Below, piece by piece: positions 6,600 to 63,897 of a stretch of 64,000 bases of DNA. The stretch's first letter is position 1. Each line of letters starts with the position of its first letter. The stretch is from the IMG/VR virus record IMGVR_UViG_3300045988_140747. One strand, written 5' to 3'. Position numbers and translations under genes: made by a program. The notes below the pieces were generated by a model. It worked only from the letters and a program-made list of their open reading frames with translations. It had not been told where the DNA came from and ran no database searches. Source of the DNA: a virus.

Positions 6600-7223
6600 A
6601 TGAAGAAAATCAAAGTTAAACTGACATTCAAGGAACCTATTCTCGGCACTTGGCCGGCTAATCCCAATGTTGCGCGAGAGTTTATCGCATCGAAGTCCCC
6701 TGATGCTACTACCGTTGAAGATGAAATCGCTGCCCTTGGAGCCGATGCGGTGGCAGACAAAGGGATGACTGTTTTCCCAAGAGATCCCGATGGACGCCCG
6801 ATTTTTTACGATTACCAAATTAAGGGGTTCTTTAAGGACTCCTGTGGTATGCTCTCCAGAATCGGCGGCAAGACCGAAACTGGAAAGAAAAAGGCCGTGA
6901 ATGAGTCTGGAAGGATTACGGCTTACAAGAAGACTATTGACGGGTTGATCTTCGTTGAACCACGCATGATCCCCATTGTGTTTGATGGGGAAATTGGTGA
7001 TTGTCAGCGCCCTCTCCGCGCACAGACAGCGCAGGGTGAGCGCGTCAGCCTCACCAACAGTGAAGAAATCCCTGCAGGAGCTACCTGCGAATTCTCCATC
7101 GTTCTCCTTGATGAAAGCCACGAAAAGGCTGTTCTGGAATGGATGGATTATGGCTCTTTACGTGGTATCGGCCAGTGGCGAAATTCAGGCAAGGGACGTT
7201 TCGACTACGAAATTGTAAAATGA
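6600..7223 (+). CDS. RAMP-like (Cas7/Csm3-style RRM fold) protein, 207 aa
   Basis: AAGGAG RBS. C-terminal glycine-rich loop GIGQWRNSGKGRF (7164-7202) fits the RAMP signature GhGxxxxxGxG. FPRDPDGRPIFYDYQIKGFFKDSCG (6774-6848) resembles the Csm3/Cmr4 motif (d.G.P.IPgSslKG.lR). Confidence 0.45.
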   Translation: MKKIKVKLTFKEPILGTWPANPNVAREFIASKSPDATTVEDEIAALGADAVADKGMTVFPRDPDGRPIFYDYQIKGFFKDSCGMLSRIGGKTETGKKKAVNESGRITAYKKTIDGLIFVEPRMIPIVFDGEIGDCQRPLRAQTAQGERVSLTNSEEIPAGATCEFSIVLLDESHEKAVLEWMDYGSLRGIGQWRNSGKGRFDYEIVK

Positions 7224-7453
7224 ATGCTATGGCACGGCTAAGCCTCGACTCGCAACGACAAGCAAAGGCAAAGCTCGGAGAAGCCCCGAAACGCAGTGGC
7301 CATGATGTGAAGCAAACCGCACAGCAACGGCTTCGATATGAAATGGGAAGCACTGCTATGGAGAGGAAAAGCAAAAAGACGATGCGCATAGCCAAGTCGT
7401 TGTATAGCAAAGATAAGAAATGCGAGGAATGCTCACCGACGCAACTGCAGTGA
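7220..7453 (+). CDS. small basic Lys/Arg/Gln-rich protein (77 aa), tentative
   Basis: ATG 7220 overlaps the stop of 6600..7223 (ATGA coupling). Reads MNAMARLSLDSQRQAKAKLGEAPKRSG... It lies in a purine-rich repeat-bearing region, so coding status is uncertain. Confidence 0.35.
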   Translation: MNAMARLSLDSQRQAKAKLGEAPKRSGHDVKQTAQQRLRYEMGSTAMERKSKKTMRIAKSLYSKDKKCEECSPTQLQ

Positions 7454-7699
7454 ACAGCTGAGAATATCCAGGAAGTGCGGCGCAAAGGCAAGGAATGGCA
7501 AAGAGATGCAGCGGCATTGCCTAGAGAGGTAAGGAACGGCTATGGCATTGCGTAGAACTGACCAGCAAAGAGAAGAACAGCATTGAAAAGGCATGGCTTG
7601 GTGGGTCGTCGCAAGGGCACAGCTCGGAGAGGAAGTGCCTCGCGCAGCAAAAGCAGAGTATAGAGATGAACTGCAAAGGCAAAATGGAGGTTGAACAAC
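7454..7699 (+). other. purine-rich non-coding stretch with degenerate repeats
   Basis: No ORF over 33 codons. GCAAAGGCAA occurs at 7262, 7482 and 7673. AGCTCGGAGA occurs at 7272 and 7621. GGAAGTGC occurs at 7471 and 7631. Confidence 0.4.
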
Positions 7700-8404
7700 A
7701 TGGCAGACATTAAAGACAAAATTTCAAAGCTTTTGGCTCTTGCCGAAAGCCCAAACGAGAACGAAGCCAAGATGGCACTGCTCAAAGCCAGAGAGCTTAT
7801 GGCTCAGTACAAGCTCACACCCGAAGAAATCACCCGGGAGAAAAGTGAGGTCGTGAAACGTGAAGTTCTCGGCATCAAATGCACAAAGATGACCAATGAC
7901 TGGATCCCTACATTGGCAAGTGTTATTGCTTCCCACTACTGCTGCAAGGCATATCTATACCGGGAGCAGTATTCCAAAACCAGTCAGATCGGCTTGATCG
8001 GACTTGAAGATGACTTTGACATCTGCAAAAAGATTATCCTCTATGCGGTTGAGTGCGTTCTGTCTGGAACCCGGCGGATTGTGAAGAACCCTTATGAACC
8101 CGCCGGGAGACACCGTAAGAATTGCAACGCATACGGTTGGGGGTTTGCCAAGGGACTTCGCGAAGCGTATGAAAAACAGGCTGAACAGCACCAAGAGTGG
8201 GGACTGGTTATGAGCGTTCCTTCCGCCGTCACTGATGAAATCAAAAGTCTCTGTGGAAAGGCAAAGCCCAAGCCTTATGGAACTGGGCGCTGTGATCGTG
8301 GCAGTTCCGATTTTGCCCAGTCTGGTTACGAAGCAGGAAAGCAGTTTGATCCGAGCCGCAGAATCGGAAATTCCGAACAGCCCGCATCTACTCTCACAGC
8401 TTGA
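7700..8404 (+). CDS. DUF2786-type protein (234 aa)
   Basis: ATG 7700 lies 9 nt after GGAGG (7686-7690). N-terminus DKISKLLALAESPNENEAKMALLKARELMAQY matches the DUF2786 signature helix pair. Confidence 0.7.
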   Translation: MADIKDKISKLLALAESPNENEAKMALLKARELMAQYKLTPEEITREKSEVVKREVLGIKCTKMTNDWIPTLASVIASHYCCKAYLYREQYSKTSQIGLIGLEDDFDICKKIILYAVECVLSGTRRIVKNPYEPAGRHRKNCNAYGWGFAKGLREAYEKQAEQHQEWGLVMSVPSAVTDEIKSLCGKAKPKPYGTGRCDRGSSDFAQSGYEAGKQFDPSRRIGNSEQPASTLTA

Positions 8405-8420
8405 AAAAGGAGAAAAATCT

Positions 8421-8924
8421 ATGAATGGTACGTTCTATCGTGGTGAGATTTACTACGTCAATCCCGGAAACGGCGAAGTTGGAAGTGAAATCCGAAGTGG
8501 TCGTCCCGGCGTTATCGTCAGCAACGATCTAAACAACAGGCATTCAGCCTTCGTTGAGATTGTATATTTGACAACGAAGGATAAAAAGCCTCTGCCAACG
8601 CATGTTCATGTTGAATCCTCTGGAGTTTCGGCCACCGCGCTGTGCGAACAGGTCGTAACTGTTGATAAAAGCCGCCTGAGCACATACATTGGCACACTTA
8701 CGAGCGCCGAGATGAAAGATGTCGAAAAGAGTATTGTTATCAGCCTTGGACTTGACGATTATGTTGCTGCCTCCAAAGAGAGCGCATTGGACCCAACCAG
8801 ACAGTGTTGCTCTCATTCTGAAAATTTGAAGCTTCGATTCCACAGCGATTCTGAGTATATCGCGGCTTGCGCACAGCGAGATGCCTACAAGGAACTGTGT
8901 ATGAAGCTTATCGATCGAAAGTGA
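8421..8924 (+). CDS. MazF/PemK-family endoribonuclease-like toxin with C-terminal extension (167 aa)
   Basis: GEIYYVNPGNGEVGSEIRSGRPGVIVSND...LTTKDKKPLPTHVHV...CEQVVTVDKSRL follows the PemK/MazF pattern (GdIy.v.f....GsE..g.RPavVvs......vvvpltt......p.hv.l.....s.v.~eqirtid~.RL). AAAGGAG RBS. Confidence 0.65.
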   Translation: MNGTFYRGEIYYVNPGNGEVGSEIRSGRPGVIVSNDLNNRHSAFVEIVYLTTKDKKPLPTHVHVESSGVSATALCEQVVTVDKSRLSTYIGTLTSAEMKDVEKSIVISLGLDDYVAASKESALDPTRQCCSHSENLKLRFHSDSEYIAACAQRDAYKELCMKLIDRK

Positions 8925-8936
8925 GGGAATCCGAAT

Positions 8937-9212
8937 ATGAAAGCTGAAACAATCGAGTGGCATGATATCAAAGAAGATGGATTGCCTGATATTGACGAAA
9001 ACGACTATTGCGAGAACCGTTTCCTTGTTGTCATCCATCACAAATATGTTGCTTTCGATAGAACCATTCAGGATGACGTTTTTGTTCATGAAGCATCAGT
9101 CTTATGTGGCGAGTTTGTAGATGATGAATGTGACAGTATCGAGAGGAAACGAAATGGGCACACTTTCACTATCACTCAGTGGGCAAGAATGCCGAAAGGA
9201 GTACATAAATGA
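8937..9212 (+). CDS. DUF551-like protein (91 aa)
   Basis: IEWHDIKEDGLPD ... ITQWARMPKG resembles the DUF551 frame (W..v....P ... tHWmplP). Confidence 0.55.
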   Translation: MKAETIEWHDIKEDGLPDIDENDYCENRFLVVIHHKYVAFDRTIQDDVFVHEASVLCGEFVDDECDSIERKRNGHTFTITQWARMPKGVHK

Positions 9213-9760
9213 GCAATCTGAAAGACGATGCCATCAATCTTTTGAATGACTTAAACCAGAGCGGCAACTTCAAATACGGAGATTATAGCGTTCTGTTTGA
9301 CGCCATTTGCGAGATCGAACCTTTGCAGGATCGAGACGAACAGCTAGAAGCATTGTGGGATGACTTCGGAAATGTTCCGTACAATGAAGAAACGGAAACC
9401 ATAGAAGAAGACTTTTTGACCTTTTGTGCCGGCACACATCGCTATGATATCTGGAAGTGGTTTGATGAACGGCACAGCAAAGGCGTAGCGTATCTTTTGT
9501 ATAAGTACGGACGGAACAAGTGCTATGTCTTAAAGCACAACAATTATGCTGATGGCGAGGACTTTGAAATTTTCTTCTATGAGGATGCGGCAAGGATTGC
9601 CATGAAGAGCGAGATGGAATCCGTTGTTGAAAACCTGAAGTCCGAAGGCTATGCGCCGGAGATTGTCAATAAGCCTTATCGCCCTGAAGTTTATGTACCT
9701 GATACTGGAATATATTACGACTGGGAAATCTTTCCGTCCTCTGTAAACGTTACCAAATGA
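9209..9760 (+). CDS. hypothetical protein with WFDERHSKG module (183 aa)
   Basis: AAGGAG RBS. Shares the segment DIWKWFDERHSKGVAYLLY with 18836..19498. Confidence 0.75.
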   Translation: MSNLKDDAINLLNDLNQSGNFKYGDYSVLFDAICEIEPLQDRDEQLEALWDDFGNVPYNEETETIEEDFLTFCAGTHRYDIWKWFDERHSKGVAYLLYKYGRNKCYVLKHNNYADGEDFEIFFYEDAARIAMKSEMESVVENLKSEGYAPEIVNKPYRPEVYVPDTGIYYDWEIFPSSVNVTK

Positions 9761-9813
9761 TACGCTATATCCAAATATTACCCAAAAAGATTTCTGAAAA
9801 TCGCTGTTTTGGC

Positions 9814-9841
9814 TTGACTTTACCGGCTGGTAATGTATAGT
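9814..9841 (+). promoter_or_regulatory. promoter, divergent relative of the conserved cassette (copy 5)
   Basis: TTGACT 9814-9819, 16-nt spacer, TATAGT 9836-9841, then leader and TGGAGG before ATG 9884. Confidence 0.55.
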
Positions 9842-9883
9842 AAAACTACGGAAACTATACTGCTTTACATGGAGGCTTGAAAA

Positions 9884-10102
9884 ATGACTAGAACAGCTGG
9901 ACAGGTCCCTGATCTGCCGAAAGAAATCGTTGATCGATGGATGAATGAAAATGGATACCCTTGCGGAGCCCTCAAAAAATGTGATGAATGTACCCCGTCC
10001 ACTTACTCCGCTTGCTCGACTTGGGCAATTTGGTTCAAGAAATCGTGGGGGAATATTTGCTACAATGCGACACAATCGAAAAGGAGAGATCTTGATCTAT
10101 GA
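9884..10102 (+). CDS. hypothetical protein (72 aa)
   Basis: GGAGG lies 8 nt upstream. Confidence 0.65.
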   Translation: MTRTAGQVPDLPKEIVDRWMNENGYPCGALKKCDECTPSTYSACSTWAIWFKKSWGNICYNATQSKRRDLDL

Positions 10103-10461
10103 GCTATGACATCAGTCTCGTTGACCCGGTCACAAAAGAAACTCTTGAGGCCGACTTCGTACACCATATCACTGGTGGATCCTATACTATTGGCGGAACC
10201 AGAAAGCTCGAGCTCAATGTGACATGGAACTACTGTAAGTTCTACTATGGAGACAAGGCCTTCGGGGACAAGGGTATCAAATCGCTTGATGGGATGACAG
10301 GCGCTGAAAGCATTCCTATCCTGAAAAAAGCTATTTCAAACCTTGGAGACGATGTTTCCCCTGTATACTGGGATGCTACCGAGGGAAACGCAAAGAAAGC
10401 TTTGTGCGGGTTGCTCGCACTTGCTCAAATTAGGCCTGACGGCGTATGGGAGGTGGTGTGA
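10099..10461 (+). CDS. hypothetical protein (120 aa)
   Basis: ATGA overlap with the previous stop. AAGGAG at 10081. Confidence 0.7.
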   Translation: MSYDISLVDPVTKETLEADFVHHITGGSYTIGGTRKLELNVTWNYCKFYYGDKAFGDKGIKSLDGMTGAESIPILKKAISNLGDDVSPVYWDATEGNAKKALCGLLALAQIRPDGVWEVV

Positions 10462-10462
10462 A

Positions 10463-10876
10463 GTGGATCTCAATGGGTTCGAAGTATATGATATGAGGGA
10501 TCGTCCCATTGCATTCTCTATCACAGAGAATGGAATCACATTCAATGCAAGCGCTGCTAAAGCCATTGGATATCCAGCGTATGCTACGCTGTATATCAAT
10601 AAAGAGGACCGACTACTGTTATTGATGGCATCCGACAAGTACGACGATAAATCGAAATCCTTTTTCACAGGAAAAAGAAAAAATGCTAATGTCAAAAACG
10701 TGCGATGGAATAGCGAGTCGCTGAATCGGGATGTCATTGATCTCATAGAGGGAGATAAAACCGGTGAACTTTGCATTTCCGACTTCAGGGTTCGTGGAAG
10801 GAAGGTTGATGTTGGAAAAGAGCCTCCGGTACCAGCTGTATTGTTCGACTTAAAAGTTGCGAAGCAAATATTGTGA
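10463..10876 (+). CDS. hypothetical protein (137 aa)
   Basis: GTG 10463 lies 6 nt after GGGAGGTGG. ATG 10493 is an alternative start. The upstream part of ORF 10343 overlaps the previous gene. Confidence 0.55.
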   Translation: MDLNGFEVYDMRDRPIAFSITENGITFNASAAKAIGYPAYATLYINKEDRLLLLMASDKYDDKSKSFFTGKRKNANVKNVRWNSESLNRDVIDLIEGDKTGELCISDFRVRGRKVDVGKEPPVPAVLFDLKVAKQIL

Positions 10877-10886
10877 GGGAGAAGCT

Positions 10887-11069
10887 ATGATTATCTGCGA
10901 TCCCCAGTGCCCTGACAGATTTCCTGGATGCTCAGATCGTTGTGAGCGGTACAAGGAAAGGCGAAAAGATTACGAAAAAAGAATGAAGTATCTGAAGGAT
11001 TTTTCGTTTAATCCGTATTGCAGGCACAAAAGGCACCGTGATATTGTTCGAGACGCAAAAAGAGAATAA
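10887..11069 (+). CDS. small Cys-rich basic protein (60 aa)
   Basis: ATG 10887 follows GAGGGAG. Reads CDPQCPDRFPGCSDRC, then a Lys/Arg-rich tail. Confidence 0.6.
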   Translation: MIICDPQCPDRFPGCSDRCERYKERRKDYEKRMKYLKDFSFNPYCRHKRHRDIVRDAKRE

Positions 11070-11206
11070 TCCCGCTTTGCTTGTATGGCATTTATGAAGG
11101 CATGTGAGGAGGTGCTACTCTTATAAAAAAGAAGAATGTTTATGAAAAAAGGATCAAGGCCCGAAATGATGCAGCACAGATCTTTTGTTGGTGTATCGTT
11201 ATTGCG

Positions 11207-11854
11207 TTGAACCAAGAAGAAGGAATCGGTTCAGAACGGCTCGGAAGAGCTTGTGATGAGATGAAGACTTTTGAGGATAAGTTCAAGAACATGATCCAGT
11301 CTTCCGGCAGAAAAGCTGCTTCTGTCGAAATGGAAAGGCTCTTGGATGGAGTGTGTGATACCGACATTATCCTTCCTTCTCTCAAGTACCCGAAGACACG
11401 CTTTGAAGAGCAAATCCGAATGGCAGAAAACGATGGTGGAAGAATTGCGTGGCTTGTGATGGCTTGCTCCGCTCGGTCTACTTTTGGATTTGGCAAGGAT
11501 CGTCTTGCTCGTCTAAAGAAAGAATCGCTCGATAATTATCGGCAGTATATTGAATGGAAGGAAAGCGCCGGGGAAACGTATGCGCTCGAACAGATCAGGA
11601 GATGCGCCTCTGCTGCACTTAGAGAGACACTGTACATTTCAGACACAAGGAATGACGAGCCTCCCACAAGAGCATACGTTAGAGAGAATGATCCCATTTC
11701 AGCTTTGAATGTTTCATCGGCGGTTTCTGCAAATCTTGCAAGAAAAAAAGGCGTAAAAAGTGTTCCACTTCTCGTTCTTAGCCAAGATGAGGCTCGAAAG
11801 CAAGTAAAAGCTGTCCTTGATTCGCTTTATCCGCAGGCGGGCAAAAAGTGCTAA
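11207..11854 (+). CDS. hypothetical protein (at least 215 aa; start uncertain)
   Basis: The first canonical start in frame is TTG 11207, with no RBS. The frame is open from 11108, and a strong GAGGAGG (11106-11112) sits there, suggesting a non-canonical start near 11120. Confidence 0.55.
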   Translation: MNQEEGIGSERLGRACDEMKTFEDKFKNMIQSSGRKAASVEMERLLDGVCDTDIILPSLKYPKTRFEEQIRMAENDGGRIAWLVMACSARSTFGFGKDRLARLKKESLDNYRQYIEWKESAGETYALEQIRRCASAALRETLYISDTRNDEPPTRAYVRENDPISALNVSSAVSANLARKKGVKSVPLLVLSQDEARKQVKAVLDSLYPQAGKKC

Positions 11855-11955
11855 TTGATAAAATTTCATTGGCCGTTCCTTTCGCCCTGCTGTCTGTGCA
11901 TGTCTATATCCGATATATGACTGTACTCGGTATTCCGTTATGATGGAGAAAAACA

Positions 11956-12120
11956 ATGAGAAAAAGTATTCTGGCGAGGATGACTGACTTTGTGGCCGAT
12001 AGTCGCATTGCTCCTGTTGTCATTGGAATTGGCATAGTTGTTCTTCTGTATGTGCTTGTTTCATTGCCACTTACTGCGCTCAAGTTGAAGTTTTTACAGT
12101 TTGTCATTAGTGCACTGTAG
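11956..12120 (+). CDS. small membrane protein (54 aa)
   Basis: Below ORF-track cutoff. GGAG lies 7 nt upstream. Hydrophobic core APVVIGIGIVVLLYVLVSLPL. Confidence 0.45.
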   Translation: MRKSILARMTDFVADSRIAPVVIGIGIVVLLYVLVSLPLTALKLKFLQFVISAL

Positions 12121-12145
12121 AAAACGAAAATTTTGATTTGAAAGT

Positions 12146-12175
12146 TTGACCTTATTGCAATTTTGATGTATGATA
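12146..12175 (+). promoter_or_regulatory. sigma-70-type promoter (not of the conserved family)
   Basis: TTGACC 12146-12151, 17-nt spacer, TATGAT 12169-12174. Confidence 0.5.
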
Positions 12176-12209
12176 CATAAAAAGGCAAAACGAGAATGGA
12201 GGTGAAACA

Positions 12210-12719
12210 ATGAACGCAAAGGACACCATTACGGCTGCGCTCAAGTCGGTCGGACTTACACAGAAGGAGGCCGCTGCAAAAATAGGATGGTCGCCGTATC
12301 AGATCAATGCCAAAATTGCAAAGGGAACGCTTCGAGCTGACGCATTTTTGAACCTCATGGACAGTATCGGAGTAGATGTTACTCTGACGAACAGAGCAAC
12401 TGGGAAAGAGATCCGCCTGCCCACCGAGGGAGTTGGACGGCGAGTAAAGGCAATGGTTGATCGCGTTATCTACGATACCGCAGCATCCGATGCGCTTGCC
12501 AACAACTTCTACGCAGATGGGAAAAATGAGTACTCCGATGGAATGGCTATGGAACTGTACATCGATCAGAACGGTCGATACTTCTTTGCTTGCTATAGCA
12601 ACCTAGAGGGAGTCAAGGATCGGATCCTTCCCATCTCCGCGTCAGATGCGGCCACATTCATCCGAAGATATGGAACTGCAACACACAAAGAGGATGCAGG
12701 CTCCGAAATTCAAGAATAA
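12210..12719 (+). CDS. HTH (XRE-like) domain protein (169 aa)
   Basis: GGAGGTG RBS. N-terminal LKSVGLTQKEAAAKIGWSPYQINAKIAKG looks like a helix-turn-helix. Confidence 0.65.
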   Translation: MNAKDTITAALKSVGLTQKEAAAKIGWSPYQINAKIAKGTLRADAFLNLMDSIGVDVTLTNRATGKEIRLPTEGVGRRVKAMVDRVIYDTAASDALANNFYADGKNEYSDGMAMELYIDQNGRYFFACYSNLEGVKDRILPISASDAATFIRRYGTATHKEDAGSEIQE

Positions 12720-12730
12720 CTTTAGATTTT

Positions 12731-12768
12731 ACACCCCGACGGAATATCCGCCGGGGTGTTTTCTTTTT
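12731..12768 (+). terminator. rho-independent terminator
   Basis: ACACCCCG (12731-12738) pairs with CGGGGTGT (12752-12759), followed by TTTTCTTTTT. Confidence 0.7.
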
Positions 12769-12877
12769 ATTCCGGCAGAAAGGGCCATTCCTTCATCGGG
12801 TAAAAGATAAAAAGCTACAAACTGTATTCTATACGAAAACCGCAACATGAAAGAATGTTTCGATGCATCGTCAAAAC

Positions 12878-12905
12878 TTGACATGGCCGGTAGTTCTGGT
12901 ACGAT
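12878..12905 (+). promoter_or_regulatory. conserved phage promoter cassette, copy 6
   Basis: TTGACA 12878-12883, spacer tggcCGGTAGTTcTGG, TACGAT 12900-12905. Confidence 0.7.
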
Positions 12906-12955
12906 AAAGTTGTGGAAAAAACCACACGATATCGAGAAAAAAGGAGGTGAATGAG

Positions 12956-13054
12956 ATGAGCAAGGAGTTCTTCAATCTCCCTGAATCCACCAAGAGGATG
13001 ATCTGGGAGGCACTTCTCGCACGGTGGGCAGCAAAAAAGCCCGCCACCCGATAA
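12956..13054 (+). CDS. micro-protein (32 aa), tentative
   Basis: AAGGAGGTG lies 6 nt upstream. Reads MSKEFFNLPESTKRMIWEALLARWAAKKPATR. First ORF after promoter copy 6. Confidence 0.4.
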   Translation: MSKEFFNLPESTKRMIWEALLARWAAKKPATR

Positions 13055-13237
13055 ACGGATGACAGGCTGCAAGATGAGATTTCCAGACCACATCTTGTAG
13101 CCAGTCTACCATCGGAAGGAGATGATGTCAAGAGGTTTCCGGCGGAGTTTGACCTCATAAATCAAGCCCCGCCCCACTACCTCGGCAACAGCCGGGAGAT
13201 TATCTCGATTATACACCGAACAACAGGAGGCTTCGAA

Positions 13238-13570
13238 ATGAGATGCTGTAATCTGGATCCGCTGCCAGTCGTCACCGGCGATCCGTTTGACTGGCACGAT
13301 GACTGCGAGTTTTGCGTCACGCTGGCTGCTCGTGCTGCCGCGATCGTCCAGCAGGTCACAAGATACGCTGTCACTCGGTACACCTGCCCAGGACGACAGA
13401 TTATCGTATCCAAAAGCACGCGCACCACTGGAGGGTGGCAAGTGACCTACTACTGTACCGACCGGATTACCGGGGACATGGTGCCGACAGGACACACCGA
13501 TTGCGACACAGCCGAACAGGTTGCTGGAGAAATCCCAGAAAGCTTTTGCGCAGCCGATGCTGTCGCATAA
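13238..13570 (+). CDS. hypothetical Cys-rich protein (110 aa)
   Basis: CAGGAGG lies 8 nt upstream. Confidence 0.65.
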   Translation: MRCCNLDPLPVVTGDPFDWHDDCEFCVTLAARAAAIVQQVTRYAVTRYTCPGRQIIVSKSTRTTGGWQVTYYCTDRITGDMVPTGHTDCDTAEQVAGEIPESFCAADAVA

Positions 13571-13597
13571 TCACAATCAGAAACAGGAGAATGCAAT

Positions 13598-13921
13598 ATG
13601 ACTACTGAAGAGCTCTTCCATAAAATGCAATGGCATGTCGAACGCGAGGTCAAGCATTACAAGGCAGATTTCGATATCGACAAAGACGATATCCTTGAGC
13701 GCATCGCTAGCCGACGGTTTGGTCAGTACATTTGGGTCACGCGCGAGTGTGGGACTCATTTTGTTTCCACCGGGACATGCGCAGACGATCCGAAGGCTTC
13801 CGAGGAATTCCTCAATGCAATCCGAAGGACTTGGCCTGAGCGCCACGAATACATTATTACAATTTCGTCCACAGGACGCCATAGATTCCAAAGGAATGGA
13901 ATGAAACCGAGTGGAAAGTAA
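13598..13921 (+). CDS. hypothetical protein (107 aa)
   Basis: CAGGAG RBS. Confidence 0.7.
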   Translation: MTTEELFHKMQWHVEREVKHYKADFDIDKDDILERIASRRFGQYIWVTRECGTHFVSTGTCADDPKASEEFLNAIRRTWPERHEYIITISSTGRHRFQRNGMKPSGK

Positions 13922-13972
13922 TTGCGGATTTCTGCTTTTTTGAAAAATCTTCGGAAAAATAGCGATTTTATA

Positions 13973-14000
13973 TTGACTTTTCCGATCGGTATGGTATCGT
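13973..14000 (+). promoter_or_regulatory. conserved phage promoter cassette, copy 7
   Basis: TTGACT 13973-13978, 16-nt spacer, TGG + TATCGT 13995-14000. Confidence 0.6.
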
Positions 14001-14040
14001 AAAGATATGGAAACACAACACGATCAAAAGGAGGCACACA

Positions 14041-14640
14041 ATGGCTGTTTATGCATGTATTTACGGCAAGGAAAACATTGCCGAATATGAAGGATGCGTT
14101 CTAAGAACCTACGAGAAAAACGGCTACGAAGATTCTGACTGGTATGCGGTTTGCTGGGACCGCAGCAAGAAAGCTGTTGTTGATGTGAAGTATGACACAA
14201 CCCGGGCTGGTGGCGGTGGCTCCGCCGTGATCGACGCTACGGATGATGTTATCCGCCTTGCGTATCGGTATTACTGGAGCCTTGGCAGATCCTTCTTCGA
14301 CAACAGATCTAACCCCGACAACGCCAAGATGATTCGCGTTGGCGACACCGTAAAGGTGGTTCGCGGCCGCAAGGTCAAGAAGGGGAGCGAAGGAACCGTT
14401 TTCTGGGTTGGAACCAGAAAGAACCTGTACACCTACCGGGTCGAGGATCGGATTGGAGTGGAAATCAATGGCGAACGAGTGTTCCTTCCTGCCGAATATG
14501 TCGAGGTTATTGGCTGGGAGAAACGCCTCGTTACCGGGAGAGCCAGAAAGCAGAAGATTCGAAACTTAGCCCTGAGCTCTATGCCGAGCTGGGCCATCGA
14601 TAAGCTTGTCAACGGATATAAGGAGGCCGCAAATGATTAA
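14041..14640 (+). CDS. hypothetical protein (199 aa)
   Basis: AAGGAGG RBS. A KOW/SH3-like stretch VGDTVKVVRGRKVKKGSEGTVFWVG. Confidence 0.75.
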   Translation: MAVYACIYGKENIAEYEGCVLRTYEKNGYEDSDWYAVCWDRSKKAVVDVKYDTTRAGGGGSAVIDATDDVIRLAYRYYWSLGRSFFDNRSNPDNAKMIRVGDTVKVVRGRKVKKGSEGTVFWVGTRKNLYTYRVEDRIGVEINGERVFLPAEYVEVIGWEKRLVTGRARKQKIRNLALSSMPSWAIDKLVNGYKEAAND

Positions 14641-15007
14641 GGACTATAAGCCGTCTTTTACGGAGATCATCACCGAGTACAGCCTCGTGTTTGATGATGG
14701 ACACCACAATGGGTTCGGCTTTCCCTGTGATGAAAACGGAAAGCTGCCCGAAAACATGAAGTACGAGAAGCCTGCAGCATTCGACAACTACATCGATTGC
14801 CTGAAGCATCCTGAACGCTTCTTGCGCTTCAATAAGGTCGTCAAGGAGGAACGCAGCGTTCATAACTGCGCATCTGGCGCTTGTTCGTGCGGAGAACGAG
14901 TGTATCTTTATGACCAGTATCAAGGAGCTTGTCAGTGCCCCAATTGCGGAAAATGGTACAACCTGTTCGGACAGGAGCTGATCCCACCTGAAGAGTGGAA
15001 TGATTGA
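14633..15007 (+). CDS. hypothetical zinc-ribbon protein (124 aa)
   Basis: ATG 14633 follows AGGAGG (14621-14626). CSCGERV...CQCPNCG. Confidence 0.7.
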   Translation: MIKDYKPSFTEIITEYSLVFDDGHHNGFGFPCDENGKLPENMKYEKPAAFDNYIDCLKHPERFLRFNKVVKEERSVHNCASGACSCGERVYLYDQYQGACQCPNCGKWYNLFGQELIPPEEWND

Positions 15008-15023
15008 TTGGAGGTTATGTGCC

Positions 15024-15302
15024 ATGACAAAAGAAATGCTGAAGCTGTCTTCAACCGAAGTCCACGCTACAATCCCATACAGTATGATCTGCATGACTCG
15101 GTATGGATGTTCGTGGGACACTGGGAGACGCCGCCGGGCGTGGTTGTCCTACTTTTCCGAAGAAGAGCGGAAAGCGGCTGCACGGCTATTTCCTAAAGCC
15201 CGTGATTGGACTGTTGGCCGGGGAGTTCCCGCGGTTGTCAGAATGAGCGAGAAGACATTCTTCCTGTGGCAGAAGCTCGGAGAGTTCTGTACATCTATCT
15301 AA
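15024..15302 (+). CDS. hypothetical protein (92 aa)
   Basis: ATG 15024 lies 9 nt after GGAGG (15010-15014). Confidence 0.6.
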   Translation: MTKEMLKLSSTEVHATIPYSMICMTRYGCSWDTGRRRRAWLSYFSEEERKAAARLFPKARDWTVGRGVPAVVRMSEKTFFLWQKLGEFCTSI

Positions 15303-56282: not shown

Positions 56283-57691
56283 ATGAGTATGCCACAGATC
56301 CTGAAGCCGCAGGAAGGACCTCAGACACGGTTCATGTCTACCCCCGCGAGCATTTGTATCTATGGCGGCTAGGAGCAGCCGGCGGAGGGAAAAGCTTTGG
56401 ATTGCTCATGTCTGCCCTTCGGTACAAGAACGTGCCCGGGTTTGGCTGCACCATATTCCGAAAGAACTTCAACCAGATATTTGCACAGGGCGGTCTGTGG
56501 GATGAATCCATGCAGATCTACCAAGACGTCAAGGGAGCTTGTCCCAAGTTCGCTCGAGGGCAATGGTTGTTCTGCAATGACAAAGGTGAGGTTTTATCAA
56601 AGGTCACGTTTGCTCATATTGAGAAGGATGAGGACGTCCATAAATGGCAAGGCTCTCAGATCTGCGAATTGGGATTTGACGAGCTAACTCATTTTACCGA
56701 GAAAACGTTCTTCTATATGCTATCCCGTAACCGATCTGCCTGTGGTGTTGAGCCATTTGTCAGGGCTACATGCAACCCTGATGCGAATTCATGGGTGGCA
56801 AAGTTCATTGAGTGGTGGATCGATCAGGATACTGGATACCCAATCCCTGAACGGAGTGGGAAGATTCGATGGTTTATCCGCCGGGATGAAGTGCTCTACT
56901 GGGCTAATACCCGGCAAGAGCTCTGGAAAAGATTCAATCTCACTACAGAAGAGGAGAAAAGTGAGCCAAGGTCTGTCACGTTCATAATGTCTAAGTTGAG
57001 CGACAACAAGGAACTTATGAAGGTGAACCCGGGCTACCTTGCAAACCTAAAGGCGCTGTCTCAGATCGAGAGAGAGCGCCTTCTTTATGGAAACTGGAAG
57101 ATCAAGGCCGCTGCTGGTCTCTACTTCAAGAGATCACAGCTTGGAGAGATTCTCAATAGTGTCCCTGCGGATGTCATCCAGTGGGTAAGATGCTGGGACT
57201 TGGCTGCTACGGAAAAGGACGACAAGGGAGACCCGGCATATACTGCTGGCGTCCTTATGGGAAAGCGGAAGAATGGACGATATGTCATTGCCAACGTTGT
57301 CAACAAGCAGATGTCCGCATCTGATGTCCGAAAGACCATCAAGCTCACGGCACAGTCTGATAGAGCTGCCTATAAGCGAGTCCGAGTTCGATTGCCACAG
57401 GATCCCGGACAGGCCGGTAAGGAACAGGCGGAGTCCTACATAAAGTTCTTGGCCGGCTTTGATGTTACGACTGTGGCAGAAAGCGGAACCAAAGAGGCAA
57501 GAGCGGAGCCAATGGCTGCACAATGGCAGGCTGGAAACTTCGACATTGTATACGGCGAGTGGAATGAAGAGTACCTGCTTCAGCTTGAAAACTTCCCAGA
57601 TGGAAAGTTCAAGGATATGGTCGATGCTTCCGCAAATGCTTTTGCAGAGATCGAATCCAGATGCGCATTCAACCTCAGCAACCTGATTTGA
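56283..57691 (+). CDS. terL: terminase large subunit, reading frame broken 5' of the Walker A motif
   Basis: Frame A (56283-56372) reads MSMPQILKPQEGPQTRFMSTPASICIYGG then TAG. The frame of ORF 56354..57691 continues (L)GAAGGGKSFGLL... plus the full ATPase and nuclease domains. Removing 5 nt (TAGGA, 56370-56374) restores ...IYGGAAGGGKS. Confidence 0.8.
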
Positions 57692-57717
57692 TTACCATAC
57701 CGGAAGGAGATATAAGC

Positions 57718-60700
57718 GTGGATAAGATGACACAAGAGGATCGCATCAAGCACTATGCGCATCTGATTCAGCGTCAGACTGGCAAGGCTGTGCGACCGTA
57801 CCGTGCTGACGGATACGTCAACATGGTTAACCGGTATGGCACATCGAAAGATTCGTCCGAGCAGTACAACTTCGTACCGGATGCGCCGGTTGCTGACGAT
57901 GTGCTTGAAATGCACTATGAAAACAACGGCCTGTTTTCCAAAATCATCGATATGCCGGCAGAGGAAGCCATCAAGCACGGCTTTACCATCGAAGACGTAG
58001 AGGACGGAAAGCTGGCTGACTTCTACAGCGAAGCTCTCGACGAACTCAACTGGGAAGAGAACGCCATGACCGCCGTTAAGTGGGCAAGACTGTTCGGCGG
58101 CTCCATTGCCATTATGCTTGTGAACGATGGTCGTGGGCTCGAGGAACCTCTCGATTGGAAGAACATTCAATCCATTGACGATATCCGAGTGTACGACAGA
58201 TCGCTCATTAGCCCTGACTACAGTAGCGTGTTCAACTACGATCCGCAGGATCCATTCCGAGTTCGCGGCAGTCGGCTTGGTATGCCCGAATACTATGATG
58301 TCTATAGCAAGTATGGATCATTCCGAGTACACGACAGCAGATGCCTTGTTTTCCAAAACGGCGTCCTGCCTGAAAATGCAACTAACTCCATCTACCAGTT
58401 TTGGGGAATCCCGGAGTACATCAGGCTGAACAAGGCCATCCGGGATGCGGACATTGCACACCGCAGCGCACCCAAGTTGCTGGAACGGTCTGTGCAGCCC
58501 ATCTATAAGATGAAGGATCTCGCGGCTGAGTTGGCTACAGAACAGGGCGAAGACCGCATTCTCAAACGTCTGCAGGTTATCGACACTGCACGAGGAATCC
58601 TCAACAGCCTTGTCATCGATGCCGATGGCGAAGACTATGACTTCAAGACGTTCCAGTACAACGGTATCACTGACGTTATCAGTGCATCCTGCAATATGCT
58701 CGCTGCCCTGTCCAATATTCCACAGATCATTCTGTTTGGGCAGACCATCAGCGGAATGAGCAGCACTGATGACACCAGCATGGAGAACTACTACAACTAC
58801 GTTGAGCGCATTCAGAAAAGGATGCTGCGGAGTAATCTCCGATATCTACTGTCTGTTGTTTTTCAAGCCGGCCTTGCAACCGGAGAGGTTGATGAAGTCC
58901 CAAAGCTGAAGGTTCAGTTCAATCCTCTGTGGTCTGTCAGCGATTCCGACCAAGCAACTCTGGATCAGCAGAAGGCCCAGACCGAGCAGATCAAGGCGCA
59001 GACTGCCCAGATCTATGTCGGTATGGAAGCCATTGATCCCAGCGAGGTTCGTTCCAAGCTTGCAGATAGCGATGACTTTGATGTCGAGAATATGCTTGAT
59101 GAGTATACTGAAGAGGAACTCGAAGCTGGAATGCCAAGCAATGATGAGAGCCAAGAGCAAACGCCTGATGATGGACAGCCTGCTACTCCTGATTCTCAAC
59201 CTACTGGAAATGATGAAAAAGCCGGACCTGGTCAGCTCCTGAACGAAAAGACTCTCTCTGCTGTTGGAAACAATGCAAAAGATCCTGCCACCATGGAGAC
59301 TAAGGTTAGCTCCGATCCTCATGAAAACAAGGAAGGCACTGAAGGTGATGCCCCTGCATCCGCCCCTGCTGCGACGAAAAAGCCTTCCGACATGGACCCT
59401 GAAGAAAAGGCCAAAGCTGCACAATCGCGCCAAAACAAGGCAAAAGACCGGGAGGACTCACTTCGTACCGATGACAACAATTCTCACTCCGAAGATCAAA
59501 AAGGCTCGGTGGGCGTTATTGTGGTCAATGGGGGCAGAGTCCTGAATGGTACTCGGCACAACGATTTTGGCTACGGCCTTGTCTGTGGCCCCGGCGGTCA
59601 CATTGAAGAAGGTGAAACTCCGGAACAGGCTGCATTCCGAGAGACCAAAGAAGAATTCGGTATTACGCCCAAAAGCCTTATGTGCCTTGGACAAGGGCCT
59701 AAAGAAAAAGATACCGGCCTGAAGCCGTACCTGTTCCTGTGCACCGAATACTACGGCACTCCGAACTGCGAAGATCTCGAGATGACCGGCGCCAAGTTCA
59801 GTACCATTGAGGAATTGAACGAAAAGGCCGAATCCTTGTTCGGCCCGTTCGCAGACGGCCTGAACATCCTGATGGACTGCCTTGAAACCGGCATCTTCTA
59901 TACAGACCCAGCGGAAGGCGTAACTGGCGAGAAACTGAATTCTCATCTGGAAAAGGCTATGAATGCCGATGGAGGTCAAGGATCTGGCAATTTTGGACAC
60001 GAAGGAAGGCCAGGAAAAGTAGGAGGAAGCGCCGAGTCGCACAACTTTGGAGGGCTCAAAAACAGCGAGCTTTCATCTAAGATGAATGGCGTGTTCGATG
60101 ATGCAAAGATAGGAACTCGCTTTTCCGTAAAGATGAACGGCGTTGCCGGAAAAGATGATTATGAAATCTATAAAGTTTCAGATGGATTCTACGTTCGGAG
60201 CAAAAAAGGCGGAAACGATATTGTCAAATCAGTTGACAAGCTCGTCGAGAATTGCGGTGTATACGTCACAAATCTGACCTCTGACAAGGTCATGTATAAG
60301 GAAGCCAACATTGAAGTTGGTGAACCCGAAACAGAAGAAGCACAAAGTTTTACTAGAGCATACGAATCTTGCAGAAAGGAAAGAGAGCGACTTGCATCTG
60401 GGAATTATAAAATCACTGAAGTTGATGATGCTACCGCAAAAAAGTATGCTGACACTTTGAACAAAGCAAGCAAGGCAAAAATCGCAAAACTTGCTATTGA
60501 TGACCCACAGTTCAAGGCTGTTGTTGATAACATTTCTGCGTATACACAGGGAGAATATGTATATCAGCGAAAAGCGACTGAAAAATTCATCAGCAACGGA
60601 TATGACCCATCTAACGATGCAATCCTCGGAGATCGACTTACCGATTCTTTGTATTTATGCAAAGACATGTACAAGGGACAAAATCTTTCCGTTTCCAGTG

Positions 60701-63700
60701 CAAGTGTAACGGAAGGCATGGCGAACTTGACAAAGGCTGTGAATTGCTCCGATCCGTTTGACGGAGAGCTGTACCGAGTTGCTCAGGACAGAAGCCTGAT
60801 GAAAACTGCAGACTCTGGAAACCAGGGAGTATACACTCCGCCAAAACCCGGAGAAACAATATCCATAGTTGCTCCTACTTCGTTCTCAAAGGACAAAGCG
60901 GCTATTGATAAGATTGCCAAAGATAAGTCCGGTGATATCATCTATTACACTGTTCAACCGGGTGCTCATGCCGTAGATGTATCAAAGCTGTCACCGTATA
61001 AGCAAGCTGAACTCCTTACCTGCGGAGAATATGAGGTTGTCAGTGTTGATTCCAAGCCTCAGAGAGTTGTTATGACTCAGATCGATCGTTTCACAAGTGA
61101 AACAATCGATTCGCTGAAGGCCAACAGAGGGGCAACAGTTGACGACGGTTTTGTTAAATTTCCAATCCTTGAAACTCATGTGACTCTTCGCCAGAAAGAA
61201 CCTATTCACATGGATTCTTGCGATGATAGCATCCACAGATACAGACCCGACGATTTTTCCGAACGGATGGTCTATGATGACGAGATTGATCTCGATGGTG
61301 GCCCAGGGTCTGGGAACTATGGGCACGAGGGCGTTCCGGGGCAAGTGGGCGGAAGCGCCCCTAGCACAAGCGGTCCGATTTCCAAAAGTAGCTTTCAGAA
61401 GGGCTCTGGTCACTTTGAAGTAACTGGTGACGTGAAAGATATGTATCTCACAAAGCCGGCAAGAACCAGAATTGAAGGGGCTATTAAAACGGTGAAAACC
61501 GCTAATGACCTCAAGAAATATCTTGAAAATCAAGGAATCAAGCTTGAAACGTCTTATGAACCACTCAAGAAAGCGATGGATAGAGAGATCCCGTCCATCA
61601 AGGAGCAGGCTGATTATGTGATTGCCGCTATTGAGCAGTACAAGGATCTCGGTGGGCTTAAAGCGCTTAAAGCGGTTCACATCTATGACCATGATATTGA
61701 TGCACAGGCGCAGTACAGCTATCGCGCAAAAGGGGAAGGTGATGTTCCAGACGAGGGACATTTGTATATCAGCTACATGGCTAATGGAGAGCAAATTATG
61801 CATGAGTTTGCTCACGCCTATGCTGACTCCACAAAGCCTGATGGAATGGATGTTGTCGAATGGTCAGCGAAGCTCAACCAAGAAGCAGGCCTTTCGAAAA
61901 ACGTAAAATCATACTTCGGCGCGGACAGCGATGCTAAAGAAGCTGAGCGTTTTGCCAATGCGATTGGGTACGCAATTGCGGATGGAGATGGACCGGATGG
62001 CCGACTTGCATTTGCTGCAAATGTTGCGAATATCGTAAGAAATTCCAATGGATCGTCCGCAGGAATGTCCGGCGGAAACCTTGCATTTAGAAGCATGATT
62101 CCGAAAGACAGCTACTTCAACTCTCCATCCTACAAGAAGGCTGTTGAAGCCTACCGCGGAGCCATCAGAAAGCATGACGATGCATGGAAGAAATATAGCG
62201 ACCTCAAGGAAGATCTCAAAGCAGAGTCCGCTCCGAAGCCTGAATCTGAATGGGATGATAACGACATCTTCGAAGATCTCATTGGCCATCGTCCCATGAC
62301 CTACACAGAAAAAGGCAAGAAGATCAAGTCTGAGATGGACAAAGCCTTCAAGGATTCACAGGAATATGACCATGAGCAGACCGAGACTGGCGACAAGCTT
62401 CGCGAGATCAAGAAAAAAGAGCATGACAAGCAGGTGAAGGGCATCCATTTCCAACCGCCTGCTGATGCCTCCTCCGATGATTATGAGGGCTTTACCACTA
62501 AGACCACCGGAACGTCCGCCTATGATGACTACATCAACGGAGAAAGGAACGGAGGCCGAATTGCAGAGATGTCCCCGGCGGAATATCTTCAAAGATGCGC
62601 CTATCAGGTCTTTGAAGATGCTACCATTGAGTCCACTCTGGCTGCTATCGATGAGTCCAACGTTAAGAAGTATGCCGATATGATGAAGAATGGCACAAAG
62701 TTTGACATGCCGTATCTCAATTTCATGTCTGGTCAGCAGGAAGGACGGCATCGAGCCGCTGCTGCCATGCAAGCTGGTATCGATAAGATCCCTGTGCTTG
62801 TGGTCGGAGAAAGGTTTGCCAAGTATGACGGAGGAAAAGGCTCTGGCAACTGGGGCCATGAAGGCCGAAAAGGGAAGCTCGGTGGATCGGCCCCCGGCGG
62901 AGGCGTGCACAACCGGATTTCCGAAGAGGGCGGATCCTACACCTCATTCTCAAAGAAGCAGAAGAAACTTGCCACAACGCACTTTGCCGGCAAGGGGGAA
63001 TTTCACAATCTCCCGGACAAGACTAAGATTGTTGCCGATCTTGTGTTTGGACCGTACTCTATGGTCTATAACGCCAAGCATGGCATGTTCATCGGCGAAG
63101 ACGGTGCCGAAATGAACCCGGATGATGTGACAGACGCTTGCGACAAAGACACTCCTGTTCGAGTGTTCATTCCGAATGAGGCGAGCACGAACTACAACAA
63201 GCTCAAGCAGTCCTTTGATGTTTCCCCGTCCAGAATGGCTGAAGCAAAAGCCTATTCACAGCCAAAGCAAGCCGACAAAGACCTCCGAAAGAAAACCGGA
63301 GAGGTGTGGAAAACGCTTACTGATGGTCAGAAAAAGTCACTTTATGATTATACCGGCGGCTTTTTTATGGACATCAACCACTCCCTGAGAAGTGGTCATG
63401 GAACTGTGCAGAACCAGTCCAAGGCCTCTGACATCACGACCGCCATAGCTAAGAGCAAAACTCAAGAGGATATGTGGCTGTATCGAGGAGTTGGCTTGGA
63501 GGCTGTTCCTAAGATGTTTGGTATTGACTGGGGAAAAATACAGAAGAATGACATTGGTTCTATTGTTGGAATGTCCGGCTCTGACGACGGCTTTATGTCG
63601 TGCGGTACAACTGCTGGCACTGGATATGGAGACGTAACCGATGTCAACATGAAGATTTTCGTTCCGAAGGGGTCTGAGGCTCTATACGCAGAGCCGTTCT

Positions 63701-63897
63701 CAAAGTATGGAAGCAACCCGGATGCCAAGAACTGGAACGGCGAAAGCGATCAGACCTATTTTTCCTCCGAAATGGAGACTATCTTGCAAAGAGGGTCTCA
63801 TTTCCAATGCACAAAAGCCTACTACGATGAGGACAAAAAGAAATACAGTATCGAAGTGGCTGTCACCGGACAAGAATACAAGGAGCTCAATTGGTGA
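57718..63897 (+). CDS. portal protein fused to a polyvalent cargo: Nudix, MuF-like/ART-fold, zincin metallopeptidase, ParB/Srx-like and C-terminal ADP-ribosyltransferase domains (2,059 aa)
   Basis: GTG 57718 lies 8 nt after AAGGAG (ATG 57727 is an alternative start). DUF1073-type portal region at about 57.7-59.1 kb. Nudix box GPGGHIEEGETPEQAAFRETKEEFGI (59587-59664). R / TSFS / QxE triad at 60775, 60877 and 61003. HEFAH at 61801-61815. EGRHRAAAA at 62740-62766. Terminal ART domain with YTGGFFMDINHSLR, LYRG (63484), FMSCGT (63598) and ExE (63769-63777). Confidence 0.8.
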   Translation: MDKMTQEDRIKHYAHLIQRQTGKAVRPYRADGYVNMVNRYGTSKDSSEQYNFVPDAPVADDVLEMHYENNGLFSKIIDMPAEEAIKHGFTIEDVEDGKLADFYSEALDELNWEENAMTAVKWARLFGGSIAIMLVNDGRGLEEPLDWKNIQSIDDIRVYDRSLISPDYSSVFNYDPQDPFRVRGSRLGMPEYYDVYSKYGSFRVHDSRCLVFQNGVLPENATNSIYQFWGIPEYIRLNKAIRDADIAHRSAPKLLERSVQPIYKMKDLAAELATEQGEDRILKRLQVIDTARGILNSLVIDADGEDYDFKTFQYNGITDVISASCNMLAALSNIPQIILFGQTISGMSSTDDTSMENYYNYVERIQKRMLRSNLRYLLSVVFQAGLATGEVDEVPKLKVQFNPLWSVSDSDQATLDQQKAQTEQIKAQTAQIYVGMEAIDPSEVRSKLADSDDFDVENMLDEYTEEELEAGMPSNDESQEQTPDDGQPATPDSQPTGNDEKAGPGQLLNEKTLSAVGNNAKDPATMETKVSSDPHENKEGTEGDAPASAPAATKKPSDMDPEEKAKAAQSRQNKAKDREDSLRTDDNNSHSEDQKGSVGVIVVNGGRVLNGTRHNDFGYGLVCGPGGHIEEGETPEQAAFRETKEEFGITPKSLMCLGQGPKEKDTGLKPYLFLCTEYYGTPNCEDLEMTGAKFSTIEELNEKAESLFGPFADGLNILMDCLETGIFYTDPAEGVTGEKLNSHLEKAMNADGGQGSGNFGHEGRPGKVGGSAESHNFGGLKNSELSSKMNGVFDDAKIGTRFSVKMNGVAGKDDYEIYKVSDGFYVRSKKGGNDIVKSVDKLVENCGVYVTNLTSDKVMYKEANIEVGEPETEEAQSFTRAYESCRKERERLASGNYKITEVDDATAKKYADTLNKASKAKIAKLAIDDPQFKAVVDNISAYTQGEYVYQRKATEKFISNGYDPSNDAILGDRLTDSLYLCKDMYKGQNLSVSSASVTEGMANLTKAVNCSDPFDGELYRVAQDRSLMKTADSGNQGVYTPPKPGETISIVAPTSFSKDKAAIDKIAKDKSGDIIYYTVQPGAHAVDVSKLSPYKQAELLTCGEYEVVSVDSKPQRVVMTQIDRFTSETIDSLKANRGATVDDGFVKFPILETHVTLRQKEPIHMDSCDDSIHRYRPDDFSERMVYDDEIDLDGGPGSGNYGHEGVPGQVGGSAPSTSGPISKSSFQKGSGHFEVTGDVKDMYLTKPARTRIEGAIKTVKTANDLKKYLENQGIKLETSYEPLKKAMDREIPSIKEQADYVIAAIEQYKDLGGLKALKAVHIYDHDIDAQAQYSYRAKGEGDVPDEGHLYISYMANGEQIMHEFAHAYADSTKPDGMDVVEWSAKLNQEAGLSKNVKSYFGADSDAKEAERFANAIGYAIADGDGPDGRLAFAANVANIVRNSNGSSAGMSGGNLAFRSMIPKDSYFNSPSYKKAVEAYRGAIRKHDDAWKKYSDLKEDLKAESAPKPESEWDDNDIFEDLIGHRPMTYTEKGKKIKSEMDKAFKDSQEYDHEQTETGDKLREIKKKEHDKQVKGIHFQPPADASSDDYEGFTTKTTGTSAYDDYINGERNGGRIAEMSPAEYLQRCAYQVFEDATIESTLAAIDESNVKKYADMMKNGTKFDMPYLNFMSGQQEGRHRAAAAMQAGIDKIPVLVVGERFAKYDGGKGSGNWGHEGRKGKLGGSAPGGGVHNRISEEGGSYTSFSKKQKKLATTHFAGKGEFHNLPDKTKIVADLVFGPYSMVYNAKHGMFIGEDGAEMNPDDVTDACDKDTPVRVFIPNEASTNYNKLKQSFDVSPSRMAEAKAYSQPKQADKDLRKKTGEVWKTLTDGQKKSLYDYTGGFFMDINHSLRSGHGTVQNQSKASDITTAIAKSKTQEDMWLYRGVGLEAVPKMFGIDWGKIQKNDIGSIVGMSGSDDGFMSCGTTAGTGYGDVTDVNMKIFVPKGSEALYAEPFSKYGSNPDAKNWNGESDQTYFSSEMETILQRGSHFQCTKAYYDEDKKKYSIEVAVTGQEYKELNW

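Follow-up and report, generated by a model that had tools for sequence, protein, structure and literature searches.

The locus considered here raises the question of what a short peptide does that recurs between the domains of one very large phage protein. It lies in a stretch of 64,000 nucleotides (hereafter the window) of the IMG/VR virus record IMGVR_UViG_3300045988_140747, in which an open reading frame (ORF) on the plus strand (57661–63897; all features of the window given below are on this strand) encodes a giant portal fusion protein of 2078 amino acids, a polyvalent protein, as judged from the ORF list, its translation, and Pfam and PHROG matches (portal, NUDIX, ADPrib_exo_Tox). A 22-residue motif occurs three times in this protein. 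From our analyses we regard the element, with middling confidence, as a two-part maturation signal that stands ahead of each cargo module of capsid-interior proteins, with a flank that differs between phage lineages and a core that hardly differs at all.

The three copies, DGGQGSGNFGHEGRPGKVGGSA (59968–60033), DGGPGSGNYGHEGVPGQVGGSA (61294–61359) and DGGKGSGNWGHEGRKGKLGGSA (62827–62892), had been pointed out in an earlier sequence-only reading of the window. Translation reproduces all of them exactly, in frame within the one ORF, and a degenerate DNA pattern for GSGNxGHEG has these three sites only in the window, with none expected from 100 shuffles. The number of positions common to all three copies, earlier given as 15, is 16 of 22 on recounting. 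The accompanying statements that the nucleotide sequences differ at synonymous sites, and that selection on the peptide and not a recent DNA duplication keeps the copies alike, were borne out. Synonymous sites are randomised: pairwise nucleotide identity between the copies is 0.61–0.73, against 0.62–0.70 expected for independent synonymous draws from the gene's own codon usage, and only three to six codons are shared among the 16–19 identical residues. The constraint therefore acts on the peptide, and a reading of the motif as a DNA-level repeat was rejected.

The motif is not private to the giant gene. A homology search with residues 740–1260 returned many large phage proteins that matched through the motif alone, and 278 unique instances gave the consensus [D/K/L]GG[P]GSGN[F/H/W/Y]GHxG[R/V]PGx[V/I]GGS[A][P], with a near-invariant core (13 positions are invariant in strict-motif copies), a Ser/Gly/Ala-rich stretch after it, and an upstream flank that is not conserved across the whole set. 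With a 34-column profile built from the instances of the window and of contigs, the wider search of phage proteins that the sequence-only reading had called for found the motif ahead of modules in thousands of clusters: 6,025 protein clusters (50% identity representatives) matched at E ≤ 1e-3 and 953 at E ≤ 1e-10, with up to ten copies per protein. All sampled motif proteins were phage portal, MuF, prohead-protease or stand-alone cargo proteins. Scanning with the DNA pattern yielded more than 112 stretches in IMG/VR and 29 in a set of one genome per prokaryote species (GTDB); the latter stem nearly all from metagenome-assembled genomes, mostly of Clostridia and also of Dehalococcoidia, Omnitrophota, Elusimicrobiales, Terriglobus and Sulfuricaulis, and no well-studied cultured organism is among the 29. 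Two coupled core subtypes, GN[F]GH[A/E]GRPG[E/K]V and GN[H]GHKGVPGQV, are found within single proteins, and chimeras of them occur. A collagen-like G-X-Y repeat was also considered and rejected, since there are only five in-register triplets (GNF GHx GRP GxV GGS) and the X/Y positions hold invariant N, H and R. No Pfam or NCBIfam model covers the motif, even at E ≤ 10, and its profile has no match in the PDB at E ≤ 10. Exact-string literature searches retrieved no relevant paper, and the motif is absent from the papers on polyvalent proteins (PMC5512222) and on MuF toxins. The motif is apparently undescribed so far.

The position of the motif within proteins has a clear polarity, which we assessed in 170 motif-bearing ORFs on the fetched contigs (155 of them complete at the 5' end and 137 at the 3' end). 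Of the 155, 93 have their first motif no more than 80 amino acids from the upstream stop, while the last motif lies less than 40 amino acids from the stop in none of the 137, and less than 80 in one. A module of at least 80–100 residues always comes after the motif. Since the motif is found near the N-terminus and never at the C-terminal end, it is a header of the downstream module, and the unit is composed of a leader (or preceding module), the motif, a flexible linker and the module. This N-terminal placement ahead of the mature part is that of the capsid-targeting sequences (CTS) of phage T4. In AlphaFold models the motif is disordered in two contexts (pLDDT 31–47), and its disorder in both implies that it is accessible to a protease. 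One AlphaFold2 model covers residues 1212–1744, that is, a zincin-like and a ParB-like module with both flanking motifs (mean pLDDT 87.9), and shows two folded modules, with pLDDT below 50 in motif copy 2 (model residues 1–25), motif copy 3 (513–533) and the junction between the modules (254–260).

Homology blocks shared with relatives, as delimited by BLAST, start two residues after a motif and end one or two residues before the next one, and some relatives terminate exactly at the expected start of the next motif. Recombinant relatives with a crossover inside the motif were also found, for example P0040, P0008 and P0012; in P0040 the upstream flank of motif 1 is joined to the downstream flank of motif 2, and module A, which lies between them in the giant protein, is gone. 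The motif-bounded homology blocks, the crossovers inside the motif and the disorder between folded modules strongly support the earlier proposal of a modular delimiter, and it is well supported that the modules so delimited are exchangeable.

The motif shares this place with other short peptides. Ahead of stand-alone zincin and ParB-like modules we found the headers HPRD..GRF / NP.HD..GRF, in a fuller pattern [D/E][W/F]xExxHPR[D/G]xxG[K/R/Q]F, and G.W.T..G.HV.I; such alternative headers are present in P0139, P0145, P0147, P0148, P0152, P0160 and P0170–P0176, at residues ~750–765 of P0094 and P0120, and in the portal of the cultured Faecalibacterium phage FP_Brigit (L001:11002). They replace the GSGN motif before the same modules, some of them in the same genomes and at the same junction, and in near-identical portals the junction after Nudix is either the GSGN core or 'DDDDWITVNGTHVMID'. 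The occurrence of different headers ahead of the same modules indicates that the headers are interchangeable functional analogues. The residue before the W.T..G.HV.I header is D in P0035, P0094 and P0120 and S in P0096, a handful of cases only. Literature searches found no description of the alternative headers.

The core, GGxGSGNxGHxGRPGxxGGS, is universal across lineages, and what varies with the lineage is the flank before it. Over 110 loci with 224 strict copies, position −4, the residue just before GG, is identical in 0.94 of the pairs within a genome versus 0.19 of the pairs between genomes. Codon identity within genomes at the 13 invariant residues is 0.352, where independent draws from the genes' own codon usage would give 0.335, which means that the copies are old at the DNA level. 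Old copies with a uniform −4 residue argue that the flank is kept by selection, and thereby imply a genome-specific reader. Core positions 12–13 show a weaker version of the same within-genome uniformity, which hints at a second co-evolving partner.

Flank classes follow the lineage of the head module. All 15 records with a canonical DUF2213 protease are of class D, as is the phage studied here, and eight further records, which match DUF2213 more weakly and only in part (E from 1e-5 to 6e-11), are of class A, L or H. Records with HK97-type S78 or S78_2 proteases belong to class K, a ClpP-type protease was seen in one fragmentary class D record only, and class N goes with a divergent PF04860 portal. 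The residues further upstream have preferences of their own: the flank is L-R-[A/T]-A|GG in class A (P3 Arg in 82%), hydrophobic-[R/K]-[T/A]-L|GG in class L, marked by Val or Ile at P3 in class K, and [L/I]-x-E|GG in class E, with P3 L/I in 76% of class E copies versus 16% elsewhere. We further observed that the Logan contig ERR983261_42205 (L007) has 12 motif copies in four adjacent genes within 10 kb (4905–15088); all are of class L, with near-identical peptides and scrambled codons, and no portal was found in the 7 kb upstream of these genes.

The class E flank allowed a prediction. The prohead protease gp21 of phage T4 cuts after Glu in L/I-X-E, a site that has been defined experimentally (PMC9026906), and because the class E flank equals this site, a gp21-type (Peptidase_S77) protease was predicted for class E phages before testing. 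Among the first 50 records, S77 was present in exactly one, which is a class E record and has it adjoining its motif genes. A dedicated scan for class E copies then yielded 18 records; four of these have S77, as against none of the 47 records of other classes (Fisher p = 0.0045).

The motif directly follows the protease domain in four independent protease-scaffold proteins, and in L158 the protease (1317–2204) lies between two motif copies of a 973-residue polyprotein. A flank-like sequence, GCG-x-x-R-[A/T]-A, closes the protease domain of five class A/L proteases, whether the core follows or not. In the clade of this phage the domain ends with ...RLNID|[G/S]; in the L159 group it ends with LVDN|, and canonical members of the family read LVDN|ELSH at the equivalent position. 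As a side observation, the IMG/VR contigs L154–L160 encode a divergent DUF2213-like prohead protease subfamily with the C-terminal signature PDHLA.LP...GACS.EMGCG. A Foldseek search of the PDB with a model of the DUF2213-like protease returned herpesvirus proteases only, at non-significant scores (E = 0.17–2). Prohead proteases process their own C-termini (PMC5694885), and the T4 internal proteins and the packaged ADP-ribosyltransferase (ART) Alt have N-terminal targeting propeptides that are removed by gp21 (PMC9026906). T4 Alt is a close functional precedent for the ART module of the giant protein. The earlier idea of cleavage by the prohead protease thus finds indirect support, from the head-lineage-specific flank and from the equality of the class E flank with the gp21 site, a match limited to class E. 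A prohead-protease cut just before GG is the best-supported of the proposed mechanisms, and we see the case for it as roughly balanced.

Several points weigh against such a cut. The portal family co-varies with flank class equally well as the protease family, namely perfectly, and for this reason the association alone cannot name the reader, which could be any head-module protein rather than the protease. Class D, the class of this phage, has weak preferences only beyond P1. The S77 detections in class E are confined to the four records mentioned, three of which are interrelated, and the match between the flank and the C-terminal boundary of the protease was noticed after the fact. In an AlphaFold model of the DUF2213-like protease with its adjacent motif no docking was seen in cis, which is uninformative for trans. 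No cultured phage with the motif was found, and cleavage is deduced from sequence only. Finally, a protease site leaves unexplained about 20 invariant residues on the P' side, common to at least four protease families.

These considerations are brought together in the two-part maturation signal. Its first part, the one to four residues before GG (here x-x-x-Asp), would be what the head-maturation protease encoded by the phage itself recognises, and the reader in this phage would be the DUF2213-type protease-scaffold protein encoded ~4 kb downstream. We infer that the cut would fall between the −4 residue and the first Gly (D|GG), which in copy 1 places the candidate site after the first residue, Asp 59968–59970. 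Cleavage would free module A, the zincin-like plus ParB-like modules and the ART module from the portal inside the prohead, and the freed modules would be able to leave with the DNA. The second part, the disordered core GGxGSGNxGHxG[R/V]PGxxGGS with its Ser/Gly-rich tether, would form the new N-terminus of each module and would have a second, protease-independent role, for example as a tag for capsid retention or ejection. An in-frame crossover anywhere inside the motif would restore a working signal, and the motif would therefore be the place where modules are gained, lost or swapped.

The invariant core and the interchangeable headers suggest that the core is a tag which acts after, or independently of, cleavage, be it in retention, ejection or docking. 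Carried further, this leads to a reading that we hold only tentatively, in which the core serves capsid cargo as an address tag, both universal and portable, and becomes the N-terminus of each module after a lineage-specific cut. It is equally tentative that such a tag would be recognised by something that tailed-phage heads share despite differing portal and protease families, that it would govern retention in the capsid or exit with the DNA, and that HPRD..GRF and W.T..G.HV.I would belong to this system as further tags acting in parallel.

The order of header, flexible linker and module, with the header N-terminal in stand-alone cargo proteins, also suits a docking or packaging tag without obligatory cleavage. 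The core would then bind to something conserved inside the procapsid, be it the HK97-fold shell, the scaffold, the protease or the DNA, and each module would be tethered through the Ser/Gly linker after the core, like the cargo of an encapsulin cargo-loading peptide. Such a tag would agree with the invariance of the core across head-module lineages, with the likewise lineage-specific core positions 12–13, and with the substitution of other short headers ahead of the same modules. However, no partner was identified, targeting would be redundant for modules fused to portal, MuF or protease-scaffold, cargo held covalently on the portal could not exit the capsid, and the protease-type-specific flank and the [L/I]-x-E match would be left unexplained. 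As an account of the whole element we consider the docking tag rather unlikely; it is compatible with the two-part maturation signal, as the role of the second part. A protease-free alternative is a self-cleaving linker, in which the invariant Asn and His of N-x-G-H would cut the chain by Asn cyclisation. Neither residue changes even in the variants GNFNH and GNHCH, the core does not depend on protease family, and N-x-G-H presumably has the spacing of the FlhB/YscU NPTH loop. The Asn-cyclisation sites known so far are part of folded scaffolds, though, and the motif is predicted to be disordered, not to hold its Asn in a constrained turn of a folded domain; the PDB profile search showed no similarity to any solved structure, and the lineage-specific flank would again have no explanation, which makes self-cleavage improbable.

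The recombinant junctions inside the motif in P0040, P0008 and P0012 and the homology blocks bounded by motifs could also point to a pure recombination joint or inert spacer, kept only as shared sequence for cassette recombination. Such a joint is at odds with the randomised synonymous sites and with a median exact nucleotide run of 6.5–9 bases between copies, which leaves little DNA homology, as well as with the invariance of 13 residues at the peptide level; an inert spacer would keep neither N, H and R-P nor the lineage-specific flank. We judge this explanation quite improbable. The sequence-only reading had further named the embedded HExxH module of the same protein as a possible cleaving enzyme, and a processing role for zincin-like metallopeptidases in polyvalent proteins has indeed been proposed (PMC5512222). 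The giant protein does contain an HEFAH module, but homologues of it occur in about 1 of ~110 motif-bearing loci, the module is itself swappable cargo with its own header, and a fourth motif copy in this genome (described below) as well as many other motif genes are in proteins without such a module. The motifs are not docked on the module in the AlphaFold model, which was in cis and is uninformative for trans. Cleavage by the embedded module is thus unsupported and appears highly improbable, and the best reading of the zincin-like module is that of exchangeable cargo rather than of a processing enzyme.

The modules of the giant protein follow each other in the order portal, low-complexity linker, Nudix, motif, module A, motif, zincin-like, degenerate junction, ParB-like, motif, ART. 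Several unrelated effector domains are thus contained in one 2078-residue ORF and are fused to a virion head domain, the N-terminal portal, as in polyvalent proteins. The portal domain (PF06381 Phage_portal_3, residues 84–442, 57910–58986) has a Pfam match with E = 3.6e-72, and the Nudix hydrolase domain (PF00293, residues 615–720, 59503–59820) one with E = 5.9e-14; their pairing is kept in most relatives and in the Faecalibacterium phage FP_Brigit. Module A (420 residues, 60034–61293), between motifs 1 and 2, has homology blocks bounded by the motifs and no Pfam match, nor did database searches return any other significant family match, so that its earlier label, MuF-like, was not confirmed. 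It is partly similar to the ART-containing protein P0031. We also noted that its C-terminal half has a LYR ... TSFS ... QAE spacing like that of the R-S-E triad of ADP-ribosyltransferase-fold (MuF/ART) domains; this R...S-x-S...Q-x-E-like pattern is suggestive of an ART/MuF-type fold, and if this holds, the giant protein would have two ART-fold modules.

The zincin-like module (61360–62046) contains HEFAH at 61801–61815 and is modelled by AlphaFold with pLDDT > 90. Its best fold matches in a Foldseek search of the PDB are PPEP-3 and M1 zinc peptidases, both non-significant (E = 0.1), so that its label stands on the HEFAH sequence and these matches. The module is also found as stand-alone proteins of 270–300 amino acids with their own headers (homologues P0135, P0136 and P0139). 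The ParB-like module (62104–62826), likewise with pLDDT > 90, has a GRHR box at 62743–62754; the QEGRHR consensus is conserved, and the homologue P0182 has a match to PF02195 (ParB_N), in agreement with the earlier label. Between the two modules, comparison with P0038 and P0050 revealed a degenerate junction, 'NGSSAGMSGGNLAFRSMIP' (62047–62103, residues 1463–1481), which keeps only the remnant 'NGSSAGMSGGNLAFRS' of the motif. The full motif separates the modules in relatives, and residues 1234–1722 are therefore two modules and not one. If the motif is a cut site, the zincin-like and ParB-like modules would stay joined in this phage. The ART module (62893–63894) has a PF03496 match at 63292–63861 (Pfam E = 1.2e-20) and the PHROG annotation 'Bxa ADP-ribosyl transferase'; like Nudix, it keeps its earlier name on a significant Pfam match.

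The IMG/VR virus record is 101.5 kb long and rated 100% complete; the window comes from its minus strand, and the giant gene is placed between the terminase and the protease/capsid genes. The fourth motif copy lies outside the window, at residues 39–60 of P0126, an ORF of 299 amino acids (L006:13646–14545, minus strand) located ~2.9 kb beyond the end of the giant gene. P0126 consists of a 38-residue basic leader, the motif and a low-complexity tail, and has no family match. It is directly upstream of the genes for the DUF2213-type head-maturation protease-scaffold, a cement protein and the major capsid protein. In the related contig L063, the unit of motif 3 plus ART is a separate gene with a leader of 40–60 residues. 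The leader of P0126 resembles those of the stand-alone ART proteins of L063, and to judge from this resemblance it may be a lineage-specific capsid-targeting leader. The nearest cultured relative is FP_Brigit, whose portal is 57% identical and is also fused to Nudix; its portal-Nudix protein lacks the motif and has 'EADHPRDENGQF' at the corresponding spot (L001:11002). Megablast of the giant gene against cultured phages gave no match, nor did tblastn with a motif-containing peptide, whose motif is masked by the low-complexity filter, and homology searches with single modules reached close relatives only.

Few phage genes are as large and as variable as those for polyvalent proteins, and the sole published proposal for the processing of these proteins is that of embedded zincins. 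A short signal present in thousands of uncultivated phages gives a testable handle on the packaging, separation and delivery of polyvalent modules: it allows exact cut sites to be predicted and ties each site to the phage's own head protease. It also provides a rule by which giant phage ORFs can be divided into functional modules, and suggests a generic tag with which foreign proteins could be loaded into phage heads. For the evolution of giant proteins, it would mean that a crossover within the signal yields a functional chimera, with no need for DNA homology.

The element can be compared with several known systems. The phage polyvalent proteins described by Iyer, Burroughs, Anand, de Souza and Aravind in 2017 are chains of effector domains joined to a virion structural domain (PMC5512222). 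Like the giant protein, they contain Nudix, ART, ParB-like and zincin domains; their packaging and delivery alongside the DNA is assumed, and proteolytic processing has been proposed for them. The text of that paper does not contain the words 'linker', 'glycine' or 'GSG', and describes neither a junction peptide nor its polarity or flank; it favours zincin peptidases as the processing enzymes, which is unsupported for the giant protein. A second comparison is with the processing of the T4 CTS by gp21, where the prohead protease cuts at a short site and so takes short N-terminal leaders off capsid cargo, a packaged ART among it (PMC9026906; for giant phages, PMC5694885). Class E phages, like T4, have an L/I-X-E flank, with a gp21-type protease encoded nearby in 4 of 18 records. 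The T4 signals differ, however, in being leaders of 10–20 residues with hardly any conservation on the P' side and with a single copy per protein, whereas the motif has an invariant 20-residue core on the P' side, occurs in up to ten copies inside polyproteins and is found with at least four protease families.

Outside phage heads, the pre-toxin delimiter motifs of polymorphic toxins, such as VENN of CdiA, are said to have been described by Zhang et al. in 2012 as the border between carrier and exchangeable C-terminal modules. They are, like the motif, sites of cassette exchange, but have another sequence, serve another delivery system and occur once per protein. Encapsulin cargo-loading peptides provide a further analogy, as short Gly/Ser-containing peptides that, with a flexible linker, address cargo into an HK97-fold shell; they have no sequence similarity to the motif and are not protease sites, so that the likeness is one of analogy only. 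Within the class of polyvalent proteins, the element is a new and widespread variant of the known capsid-cargo processing signals.

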